From the NCBI RefSeq assembly GCF_003334785.1, contig NZ_QOWV01000043.1: a stretch of DNA of 5,588 nucleotides; one strand, written 5' to 3'. A model generated the notes under the pieces. It was not told the DNA's origin, made no database searches, and saw nothing but the letters and a program-made list of their open reading frames with translations. Source of the stretch: Escherichia coli. GTDB taxonomy: Bacteria; Pseudomonadota; Gammaproteobacteria; Enterobacterales; Enterobacteriaceae. A program made the position numbers and the translations under genes. This document shows, piece by piece, positions 3,590 through 5,588 of this stretch; positions within the stretch are counted from its first letter, which is position 1; every line of letters starts with the position of its first letter.

Positions 3590-3971
3590 GAAAATGTTCC
3601 TCCGGATGTTGTTAATCTCAACCGGCGTTGGTGATGAAAACGACGCACCACCTTCACCGGCATAACAACCGGGGAGAAACGTAAAAAAGTTGAGGAATAT
3701 TCCTGCCAGGAGAGAAACTGTTGTGTACAGGCAATACAGGTTGTCTGTTTTGTCAGTGAAGCCGGTATAAACGGAAGATGATTTTGTGTTGCCGGAATAT
3801 GGGATGGCGTTTTGCCGTGACGGAATCAGTATTTTCAGTGATGATTATTACTGCGCAGGGGAGTATCGGAGATAAACCACGCCCTGTACCTGCCAGAGCT
3901 GTGGTTTGTATTTACTGAAAGGAAGATAAAGCAGAGGTAAACACTGTTGCGGTGAACGGAGAAGACTGAAA

Positions 3972-4763
3972 TTATTCTCTGTAATTACAAACAACAGTGA
4001 TCTGATCCGGTTTTTTTACCGTTACGGGTTTCCGGGGATCAATTTTATAGACCGGGGTAATGACCACGCCGGAATTTATGGAGAAAAGCGGGATCCAGCA
4101 ATAAACGTCCGGATATTTCTGTGTCTCCGGAATACCTTTTGCGCCAGAGGCCATCAGATCTTTAACGCTCACGAAAAATGACTGCCGCAGATCAAAAAAG
4201 TACTCGTCATATATCACGTCTTTTGCCAGCAGGATGACTGCATTACCAACAGCCACTTTTACAGGTGTTTCGCCCGATGGATTATCGTGATTGTATATTG
4301 TTCTTTCGATATAAATAAAACAGGCATATTTCGTCTTCTCCCCGGATAGCTGCATCTGGTATTCGCAAATGTCTTTGATATACCGACTTTCAACCCTTCC
4401 AATCATCTTATCCCGGCGATAGTGTCTTTTATGTTTCAGCGCGTACAGAACACCATTTGAACTGTCAAACTCCAGGACTCTTCTGGTGAAAAGTTTGTTT
4501 TCCCAGATTTCCAGACAATACTTCTCTGCACTGACGACATTGCGTTTGCGAGGAAGATCCCGTTGATACACTCCATTTAATAAGCGTGACTGCAGTTCGC
4601 CTGCAAGTTGATAATAACAGTTAATATCGTTAAGGACAGGTGCTGTGGCGCTGAGTAATGCGTCGATTACCTTAGAGCGCGAAAGTTTGTGGGTATGACA
4701 GTACTCATCCACAATTCGCAGCGTCTCATCACTAGTCATATTGAAAGTTATACGTGTTGTCAT
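3972..4763 (-). CDS. Hypothetical protein, 263 aa; N-terminal ribbon-helix-helix DNA-binding domain fused to a C-terminal domain of about 220 aa with unknown function
   Basis: A 264-codon open frame (about 43% G+C in a hand-counted sample at 4201-4260). ATG at 4761-4763 is the first possible in-frame start, since an in-frame stop lies 6 codons upstream. N-terminal residues TRITFNMTSDETLRIVDEYCHTHKLSRSKVIDALLSAT match a strand-helix-turn-helix RHH pattern (compare the NikR N-domain RVTITLDDDLLETLD...). No obvious Shine-Dalgarno: the upstream sequence is aacagaaaacttcatcATG. Confidence 0.75.
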   Translation of the reverse strand: MTTRITFNMTSDETLRIVDEYCHTHKLSRSKVIDALLSATAPVLNDINCYYQLAGELQSRLLNGVYQRDLPRKRNVVSAEKYCLEIWENKLFTRRVLEFDSSNGVLYALKHKRHYRRDKMIGRVESRYIKDICEYQMQLSGEKTKYACFIYIERTIYNHDNPSGETPVKVAVGNAVILLAKDVIYDEYFFDLRQSFFVSVKDLMASGAKGIPETQKYPDVYCWIPLFSINSGVVITPVYKIDPRKPVTVKKPDQITVVCNYRE

Positions 4764-5086
4764 GATGAAGTTTTCTGTTAATCATATTGGTTGATATGCA
4801 TAACATTCCATAAAAAACACTGTTAATTCATATAATTAATTTTTTTGTGTGTTTTTTCCTTGAGTGGTAGAAAGCAGGGTTACTGCCACTGTACTCAGCA
4901 TAACTCTATCACATAGAACCACAGAAAATGAAGCATTGCTCAGGGGGGAGGTACTTATACGAGTTCTCTGAACCGTGATAACCAGTATTTTTCATGTTGG
5001 GTGATTTGTCGTTACAGCTACAGGCAGTTCATGTACTATTAAAAAATAATTAAGGTTAATTAGTATTATTTATAGAAGTATGGTTA

Positions 5087-5286
5087 TGTAAATGAACCCT
5101 GTAATTCCACCTTGTAACCCAATCCTGTAGACGGATCTCTCATAAAGATATGCTCATAGAAGTATCTGTACAGAGATATTCTCTGTAGTAGTACTTGTAA
5201 CTCTGTCCTTAACTCTCTCTGCTGTAATGTAATCTCGTAACACCTGAATATAAATCTGTCATGTACACACACTGACTGTAATGTAC
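5087..5286. repeat. Cluster of TGTA-core short repeats (candidate operator or iteron array)
   Basis: About eleven TGTA/CGTA-core motifs in roughly 200 bp: ctgtaat at 5099, 5222 and 5276; ttgtaac at 5112 and 5195; ctgtag at 5125 and 5183; ctgtaca at 5166; tgtaca at 5262. The 10-mer ctgtaatgta recurs at 5222-5231 and 5276-5285. The cluster lies 320-520 bp upstream of the 263-aa gene start. Confidence 0.45.
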
Positions 5287-5428
5287 TTTGTTAAGTAATG
5301 CCTGTTGTGTGGAGGCTATTCTGGCTAAATAAGAGTATGAATCGTCAGTGTCAATAGTGTGGATAACGGTGGTTGAGGGAGAACTGTTAATGTTTTGCTT
5401 TTGCAGTTCACCTGATGAATTTTGGTAG

Positions 5429-5437
5429 TGATATAAT
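5429..5437 (+). promoter_or_regulatory. Candidate extended -10 promoter element (TGnTATAAT) facing the right edge of the window
   Basis: tgaTATAAT at 5429-5437 is a perfect extended -10 consensus. No good -35 is present (cacctg at a 17-bp spacing). The context is AT-rich, so a chance match is plausible. No ORF start with an SD was found downstream within the window. Confidence 0.25.
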
Positions 5438-5588
5438 ATTGTGATCGTAAAAAGTATACCTTATGCCATTAAACAGTCTTCTGGAGTGTTGTTTACTAGT
5501 AAGCGACTCGTCAGAACCGTATTGATATTTACTGAGAGCTCAGATCAACTTTCCAGGGCAACAGATCGCGTACCCGGTTTGCCGGCCA

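Follow-up and report, generated by a model that had tools for sequence, protein, structure and literature searches.

A copy-number-variable array of 13-bp TGTAA repeats in the intergenic region between a 263-aa gene and hha of Escherichia coli genomic islands

What role, if any, does a dense cluster of TGTA motifs have in an unannotated intergenic region of an Escherichia coli genomic island? The cluster occupies positions 5087-5286 of a 5,588-bp stretch of contig NZ_QOWV01000043.1 (the window, that is, the whole stretch of DNA analyzed here), between a gene for a protein of 263 amino acids (aa) with a ribbon-helix-helix (RHH)-like N terminus on its left and an island copy of hha on its right. 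The intergenic region measures 945-1,078 bp, and the cluster spans the positions 324-523 bp upstream of the 263-aa gene. A first-pass annotation, made from the letters alone, had proposed that the cluster is an array of protein-binding sites. Here we report that its first four motifs follow one another in tandem at exactly 13 bp, a feature absent from that annotation, and that the number of units differs between closely related strains. The feature is real. It belongs to a familiar type, that of short direct repeats in the control regions of mobile elements, and the most apt description is of a repeat array that trails off into scattered TGTA, lying in the control region that separates the 263-aa gene and alpA from hha and yfjJ. 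Tentatively, and somewhat short of even confidence, we interpret the array as the copy-number-variable repeat part of a promoter/operator region that would act at the DNA level on the leftward operon (263-aa gene, alpA and a 190-aa gene). The parts of the region on which the argument turns are as follows.

5087-5138, plus strand: tandem array of four 13-bp units, TGTAAATGAACCC, TGTAATTCCACCT, TGTAACCCAATCC and TGTAGACGGATCT.
5140-5286, plus strand: non-tandem, G-poor segment of about 150 bp with eight further TGTA in the orientation of the array.
5038-5086: AT-rich block directly 5' of the array, near-invariant among E. coli homologues in the alignment.
3972-4763, minus strand: 263-aa gene (Pfam PF27701, UCP007319) with an RHH-like N terminus, the candidate target of a leftward promoter.

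On the plus strand of the cluster, TGTA occurs 12 times, starting at 5087, 5100, 5113, 5126, 5167, 5184, 5196, 5223, 5228, 5262, 5277 and 5282, as against two occurrences of TACA; there is a single CGTA, at 5236. These are 12 of the 36 TGTA of the whole window. All of the longer repeated units listed in the first-pass annotation were recovered, with CTGTAAT present three times (5099, 5222 and 5276), TTGTAAC twice (5112 and 5195), CTGTAG twice (5125 and 5183) and CTGTAATGTA twice, at 5222 and 5276 with a spacing of 54 bp. Its view of the TGTA/CGTA cluster as non-random was likewise borne out by the shared direction of the repeats and by dinucleotide-preserving shuffles of the 200 bp, which contained a mean of 4.08 TGTA (standard deviation 1.55, maximum 11) and reached 12 or more in 0 of 20,000 cases. 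We also carried out a look-elsewhere control, in which 4-mers with at least three different letters were counted in any 200-bp window in 200 shuffles of the whole window. The top non-trivial 4-mer per 200 bp reached 6-9 in these shuffles and 11-12 in the observed sequence. For 12 randomly placed sites, three equal 13-bp spacings in a row have a P of about 0.013. The scattered part at 5140-5286 is moderately enriched, with eight TGTA compared with 3.4 expected (P 0.003), and its counterparts in other lineages hold five or six (P 0.02-0.18). Similar motifs had been claimed to recur at 3736-3745 and 3884-3987; this claim was not supported, as TGTA is at background level there (three in the 382 bp of 3590-3971), and one of the supposed recurrences, tctctgtaattac, belongs to the 3'-terminal coding part of the 263-aa gene. 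When the window, 18.7-kb flanks, 47 kb of strain CFT073 and the 39-kb island of strain 164 were scanned with a weight matrix constructed from the 13-mers, none of them yielded a second cluster.

The units are arranged head to tail and conform to the consensus TGTAA(A/T)T(G/C)NA(C/T)C(C/T). We aligned twelve diverged homologues and extracted units from 11 of them and from two further loci, 13 loci in all. The logo of the 26 distinct units obtained is most informative over positions 1-5, with a moderate contribution from positions 11-12. In pairwise comparisons of the units of one array, differences occur in 10-20% of pairs at the TGTAA positions and in 54-60% at the remaining eight, and the TGTAA core is the retained part of the unit. 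Mutated cores are present in some lineages (CGTAA, TGCAG, TGTGA and TATAA). The distal units TGTAACCCAATCC and TGTAGACGGATCT are single-copy and never duplicated, and they keep the core in phase though five of the eight other positions differ. Beyond the array, an in-register match to the unit, TGTAACTCTGTCC, is located at 5196-5208 within the scattered segment. The TGTA at 5184, 5196, 5228 and 5277 are retained in most homologues, and the remaining scattered ones are variable.

Across homologues, the array comprises four to nine units. Islands that are 97-99% identical nevertheless differ in unit number, with four in the window, five in strain 164 and seven in strain 98215, a difference that arises via slippage of an 8-bp sub-unit. 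Insertions and deletions in the array are of 13, 8 or 6 bp, and sub-unit slippage has left traces in the form of TGTAATTC repeated four times and CTACCT repeated three times. At least nine length classes are present in a 40-row sample, and the length offsets relative to the query among the sampled matches are +0, +8, +12, +24, +38, +42, +47, +54 and +55 bp.

The junction between the array and the AT-rich block contains a sequence that may account for both the orientation of the repeats and their core.

5065-5092, minus strand: best sigma-70 promoter-like site toward the 263-aa gene and alpA, with -35 TTTACA (5092-5087), a 16-bp spacer and -10 AATAAT (5070-5065), 10 of 12 consensus matches.

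The -35 hexamer is the reverse complement of TGTAAA in the first unit, and the AT-rich block contains -10-like hexamers on both strands, with TATTAT at 5064-5069 on the plus strand. According to a consensus scan, this site is the only good sigma-70-like match on the strand of the 263-aa gene, and when the same criteria were re-implemented, (T/A)TTACA-16-AATAAT was found in 12 of 12 lineages. The minus strand carries one to seven promoter-like sites, of which longer arrays add two to six in 13-bp register; on the plus strand there are none in 11 of the 12 lineages and one in AST46. This ladder of sites exists because TGTAATTCTACC reads GGTAGAATTACA (TAGAAT plus TTACA), two periods placing these elements 16 bp apart. 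The variant core TGTCA reads ATGACA on the other strand, which is nearer to the -35 consensus.

On the minus strand, each unit has TTACA as a -35-like element, and TGTAATTCTACC-type units additionally have TAGAAT as a -10-like element. We propose that the first unit and the invariant AT-rich block together would constitute the predicted leftward promoter, and the further units just upstream, at about -48, -61 and -74, might serve as extra overlapping promoters or as head-to-tail sites for a regulator. A putative island-encoded regulator would occupy the -35 element or adjoin it, and candidate binders are the 263-aa RHH protein, AlpA, the HUH-like YagK/YfjJ protein and RNA polymerase. Both the transcription start at this site and the binding of a protein to the array are predictions from the sequence. 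There is precedent for promoter-overlapping series of short tandem repeats as binding sites, both of RHH repressors such as CopG, omega and ParR and of excisionase-type regulators such as P2 Cox and 186 Apl.

In favor of a promoter/operator region, the array adjoins the AT-rich block, where conservation within the intergenic region is highest, and neither the 39-kb selC island of strain 164 nor 47 kb of CFT073 has another TGTA cluster, as would be the case for a local control element. The failure of the coding and structured-RNA alternatives, described below, counts in its favor as well. The promoter matches would provide a concrete and strand-consistent reason for the orientation of the repeats and for the conserved core. 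The proposal of a protein-binding array made in the first-pass annotation stays plausible, and a reading of the units as promoter elements, with TTACA as -35, appears equally concrete. Several observations weigh against a regulatory role. The promoter sites are pattern matches in repetitive AT-rich DNA, where such hexamers are common, and the sites of the ladder are not independent because the units repeat. The window itself has one promoter-like site only, with an implied leader of about 295 nucleotides (nt). The -35 interpretation leaves the eight scattered TGTA unexplained, and slippage of 8-bp and 6-bp sub-units disrupts the 13-bp phase in some strains. The intergenic blocks are 88-91% identical compared with 95.6% for third codon positions of the 263-aa gene, and because intergenic identity is below that of synonymous sites, purifying selection is not demonstrated. 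Finally, orthologous loci of other genera lack the array.

Some of these observations would suit a functionless minisatellite, a slippage-prone tandem repeat in the AT-rich, silenced spacer of a decaying island, where TGTAA would persist since slippage between TGTAA microhomologies copies units in register and nothing would read the core. The variation in copy number and length between near-identical islands (four, five and seven units), the sub-unit slippage, an intergenic region evolving faster than synonymous sites, the orthologous loci without an array and the mutation of several cores all point in this direction, as does a neighborhood rich in pseudogenes and insertion sequences in which hha is only 49 aa long in the CFT073 type. 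A minisatellite does not readily explain why the single-copy distal units TGTAACCCAATCC and TGTAGACGGATCT keep their core in phase, why TGTA is in excess on the same strand outside the tandem part, or why the fixed junction with the invariant AT-rich block recreates a promoter-like site in all lineages. We regard this alternative as unlikely, if worth serious consideration.

If the array is part of an operator, which protein would bind it? The first-pass annotation had nominated two RHH-bearing proteins, the 263-aa protein and a 339-aa protein. The latter was not sustained, with a RepB-RCR_reg match at E 0.21 only. For the 263-aa protein the outcome is divided, with the RHH-like N terminus and the adjoining position of the gene in its favor and the behavior of its orthologues against it. 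Residues 6-33 match aCcr1 weakly (E 0.0025), and residues 1-38 align with CopG in hhalign with a probability of 52% (E 1.4e-4), with a manually entered CopG sequence; the support for an RHH fold at the N terminus appears moderate, not strong. A Pfam-A scan of the protein gave no match in the library used, PF27701 being a precomputed assignment, a sequence search of the PDB found no relative among solved structures, and the AlphaFold model is poor (predicted local distance difference test score, pLDDT, 40). Searches of the neighboring proteins against NCBIfam and PHROGs returned weak RHH and AlpA matches only.

Orthologues of the 263-aa protein with 45-57% identity are present in Citrobacter, Hafnia, Cedecea, Klebsiella oxytoca, Enterobacter and Pectobacterium, and the predicted DNA-reading strand RITFN/S is kept in all of them. 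No TGTA array was found upstream of the orthologues in these other genera, where there are at most two to three TGTA per 200 bp. Conservation of the reading strand but not of the array argues against the array as the primary operator of the 263-aa protein. At the loci of other genera, the 263-aa orthologue is divergent from a YagK/YfjJ gene followed by alpA, with a gap of about 378 bp and without hha, and compact variants lacking both hha and the array are also found in a few E. coli genomes. Common to E. coli and other-genus loci is a motif TTAAKCA-N12-TGCATAA directly before the start of the 263-aa gene. In the window this is TTAATCA-N12-TGCATAA at 4778-4803, inverted-repeat-like and 15-40 bp before the start codon, and the 12-nt spacing is constant in E. 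coli, Citrobacter, Pectobacterium and Hafnia-type loci. On this comparison, the motif at 4778-4803 would be a better operator candidate for the RHH-like protein than the TGTA array. A further block, GGTT..TTAGTAT(A/T)ATT, is located in the AT-rich block and before YagK/YfjJ-type genes of other genera and of compact E. coli variants, and it accompanies the YagK/YfjJ gene even beside a different left-hand gene.

Other binding proteins were considered as well. An excisionase array of the Cox/Apl type with AlpA as its ligand predicts the motif at the attachment sites, and this model was rejected as there is none there: the weight matrix identified no cluster near the integrase/selC end or at the far end of the 39-kb island. 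The AlpA antiterminator of Pseudomonas aeruginosa (PMC9371919), a different and larger protein with a GGGACG site, was not used as a model. Sites of the LexA, CRP, PhoB, ArcA and TorR types were rejected by eye, as half-sites and a 10-11-bp spacing do not fit, and no site corresponding to the IHF consensus was found.

Two further repeats flank or follow the array.

5072-5081 and 5156-5165, both plus strand: ATAGAAGTAT, a 10-bp direct repeat bracketing the array, the left and right copies 100% identical and 84 bp apart.
5169-5187: palindrome TACAGAGA-TAT-TCTCTGTA with 8-bp arms, perfect in the window lineage only.

Strain H22 has the right copy of ATAGAAGTAT twice, and the CFT073 type has a diverged version of it. 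In other lineages the palindrome has two mismatches without compensation, and it is probably not a conserved hairpin. The array is followed by the G-poor segment, then by a variable T-rich stretch that is largely deleted in the window lineage, and then by a DnaA box on the minus strand at 5358-5366, the only perfect one in the window and about 70 bp past the TGTA segment. A second repeat, which is T-rich and consists of about three copies of TCTGTTATTTTT, is located 3' of the TGTA segment in lineages of the CFT073 type (locus L004, 3317-3361); it is deleted in the window lineage.

The AT-rich block, iterons and DnaA box could together constitute a replication or nicking origin for the HUH-type YagK/YfjJ protein, for which the binding repeats at double-strand origins of rolling-circle replication would be a parallel. 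The invariant AT-rich block directly adjoins direct repeats, and 11 of 12 homologues retain the perfect DnaA box, TTATCCACA, of which about 0.006 are expected by chance in 735 bp. The YagK/YfjJ gene matches REP_ORF2-G2P (E 1.8e-4) and YagK_YfjJ_C (E 4.4e-4) and encodes HIHFV/HSHIV and YxxxYLAK motifs, and an RHH gene adjoins, for which pMV158, with CopG beside RepB, provides a parallel. There are several objections. Units of 13 bp are out of helical phase and unlike iterons of 17-22 bp, no hairpin for nicking is conserved, the 5169-5187 palindrome being lineage-specific, and the single DnaA box was found post hoc. YagK/YfjJ orthologues of other genera lack the array, and there is no evidence of replication of these islands. 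The matches comprise no phage and two plasmid-labeled records only. We consider an origin-like site very unlikely, and we would place slightly less credence still in its fullest form, in which the AT-rich block, TGTAA iterons and DnaA box would be a working origin of YagK/YfjJ with the RHH fusion as a CopG-like controller. YagK/YfjJ proteins may be Rep- or nickase-type enzymes, and the "inovirus Gp2" proteins encoded at locus L003 (4163-4762) and locus L013 (4035-4613) display the HUH-like motif HIHFV or HSHIV together with YxxxYLAK.

We next consider whether the repeats reflect a coding sequence.

5084-5272, minus strand: 62-aa open reading frame (ORF), an artefact on comparative evidence.

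The first-pass annotation had suspected as much. The alternative, codon periodicity of a real 62-aa protein, could draw on the frame being uninterrupted in the window and three close relatives and on 6 of the 12 TGTA lying in one frame, as counted from their positions. Stops or frameshifts interrupt the ORF in 8 of 12 homologues, variable columns number 8, 7 and 3 at the three codon positions so that the third is the lowest, and the array indels of 13, 8 and 6 bp do not all preserve the frame, as 13 and 8 are not multiples of three. PGAP has annotated the ORF in none of the homologues, and it matches no family. We give virtually no credence to a coding role, which the comparative data already refute.

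At the RNA level, the cluster might act as an unstructured, G-poor 5' leader of a rightward transcript toward hha and YagK/YfjJ, in which repeated UGUAA would be single-stranded sites for an RNA-binding factor or part of a Rho loading zone. There is no support for a structured RNA at the cluster: folding z-scores relative to shuffles are +0.39 and +1.24 for the two strands, a scan of the whole window against Rfam at E up to 1 gave no match, and the putative 295-nt leader was not more stable than its shuffles. A fold no stabler than shuffles (z +0.39) is as expected for a single-stranded platform, and it is accompanied by a strong strand bias, a G content of 15-16%, mostly within TGT, and a C/G ratio of 1.3 compared with 0.46-0.78 in the flanks. 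Compact relatives have a C-rich, G-poor leader (C/G 2.1-3.3) after a shared TAGTATAAT block, which accompanies the YagK/YfjJ gene even with a different left-hand gene, and an invariant TATAAT is located at 4831-4836 on the plus strand. Against an RNA-level role, no plus-strand promoter-like site with a -35 element lies near the array, a C content of 21-23% is low for a Rho site, and we know of no bacterial factor that binds UGUAA. Moreover, sequence homology to the compact leaders is not significant (P 0.02-0.8), and the true YagK/YfjJ leader, with a hairpin over the ribosome-binding site, comes after hha. Overall, we consider this alternative improbable. A small share of credence is reserved for explanations other than those discussed here. 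The notion of the cluster as an expanded copy of the leader of compact relatives was dropped for its non-significant homology.

The YagK/YfjJ leader itself has two predicted hairpins, and the ribosome-binding site lies within one of them, UCCUUUGUA...UACAGAGGA; between genera, a few base pairs have both partners altered. The hairpins are at 2618-2812 on the minus strand of locus L021, with equivalents at L013, L016, L018, L023, L024, L060 and L061, and a similar hairpin precedes yfjJ in CFT073 (locus L003, about 4120-4162).

The window comes from an E. coli genomic island of the tRNA-borne type, of which the strain 164 copy is at selC beside a tyrosine integrase. On one side, the island carries genes for a GTPase, Ag43, antirestriction, RadC and CbtA/CbeA, and on the other side hha, the YagK/YfjJ "inovirus Gp2" gene and zinc-ribbon genes. 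The island hha is of the hha2 type of the Juárez group (PMC4864382, PMC9431211). In this strain, an insertion at 5499 separates the array from hha.

5499-5588: end of an IS66-family (ISCro1-like) element, which starts GTAAGCG; homology to uninterrupted loci ends at 5498.

Matches of these last 90 bases of the window to IS66-like ISCro1 copies were found in 2,064 genomes. In strain 164, nearly the same spot is occupied by an IS2. Toward hha is directed an extended -10 sequence, TGATATAAT, at 5428-5436 on the plus strand; the 12 bp holding it are deleted in CFT073-type lineages, in which hha is annotated as a 49-aa truncated Hha/YmoA protein. At 2322-2468 of the window, the remnant of an IS1 transposase, partial in the annotation of strain 300709, underlies an 80-aa minus-strand ORF.

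Of 5,426 complete E. coli genomes, 748 contain segments related to the cluster, with identities of 72-100% and with no annotation on the segment among the matches listed. Phage records gave no match to the array, and a pattern scan of viral contigs returned 34 isolated chance matches and no array. In the plasmid collection there are only two matching records, both E. coli, one of 1 Mb and one of 41 kb. A 7-kb contig labeled as a Collinsella sp. metagenome-assembled genome (locus L020, JAIJJM010000108.1) carries the island segment, with a 263-aa protein of 94% identity and an array of six to seven units; this label is probably a binning error. We found no published mention of the TGTA segment, including in the literature on hha2/hha3 and YagK/YfjJ, and no transcription-start data sets for carrier strains.

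The array marks the control hub of a module that is present in these 748 of 5,426 complete genomes, including CFT073 and Nissle 1917, with the RHH-fusion gene and alpA to one side of it and the hha2-type hha and the HUH-like YagK/YfjJ gene to the other side. Should promoter strength depend on the repeats, or a regulator bind them, copy number would lead to strain differences in how strongly two genes are expressed, one for an AlpA-type regulator, whose family is linked to the excision of islands, and one for an extra Hha silencer, which has been reported to affect neighboring island genes (PMC9431211, PMC4864382). A regulatory array would thus provide a simple handle on the regulation of poorly understood islands. 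A mere minisatellite may still serve as a typing marker. Were the region an origin, the supposedly cryptic selC/tRNA-borne islands that about one-seventh of complete E. coli genomes carry would pass through a rolling-circle-like stage of replication or mobilization.

How does the array compare with known systems? Like the iteron origins of pSC101, P1 and F, the region combines an AT-rich block, direct repeats and a DnaA box within about 300 bp. Unlike in these origins, the units are too short and out of helical phase, the DnaA box is single, and no winged-helix Rep gene was found beside the iterons, the HUH-like YagK/YfjJ gene being downstream of hha; the conserved nick hairpin of pMV158-type rolling-circle origins is not present either. 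The resemblance to P2 Cox boxes and 186 Apl sites lies in same-direction repeats between divergent units of a mobile element that encodes an AlpA/Xis-type protein. Cox and Apl proteins also bind the motif at the attachment site, whereas here there is no cluster near the integrase or the selC end, and the spacing is 13 bp compared with about 10.5 bp in Cox/Apl arrays. With contingency loci such as Neisseria nadA (TAAA repeats) and Haemophilus hmw (7-bp repeats), the array shares the tandem repeat in a 5' control region and a copy number that differs among close strains. It differs in that the unit is long (13 bp) and imperfect, in that the repeats themselves hold promoter-like hexamers rather than only setting spacing, and in being known from sequence alone.

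With regard to RHH operators (the 13-bp element of pMV158 CopG, the heptads of pSM19035 omega and the ParR iterons of R1 and pSK41), the array is about 320 bp from the gene and not directly before it, its unit is without clear two-fold symmetry, and orthologous RHH genes elsewhere lack it, so that an operator conserved alongside the reading strand is not observed. The RHH domain here is the N terminus of the 263-aa protein, and the operator role is putative. Tandem repeats and an adjacent RHH gene are both present, and the likeness consists in head-to-tail short repeats next to or over a -35-like element with an RHH-type gene beside them. As in pMV158, where an RHH gene is paired with an HUH Rep gene, the 263-aa gene is here paired with the YagK/YfjJ gene.

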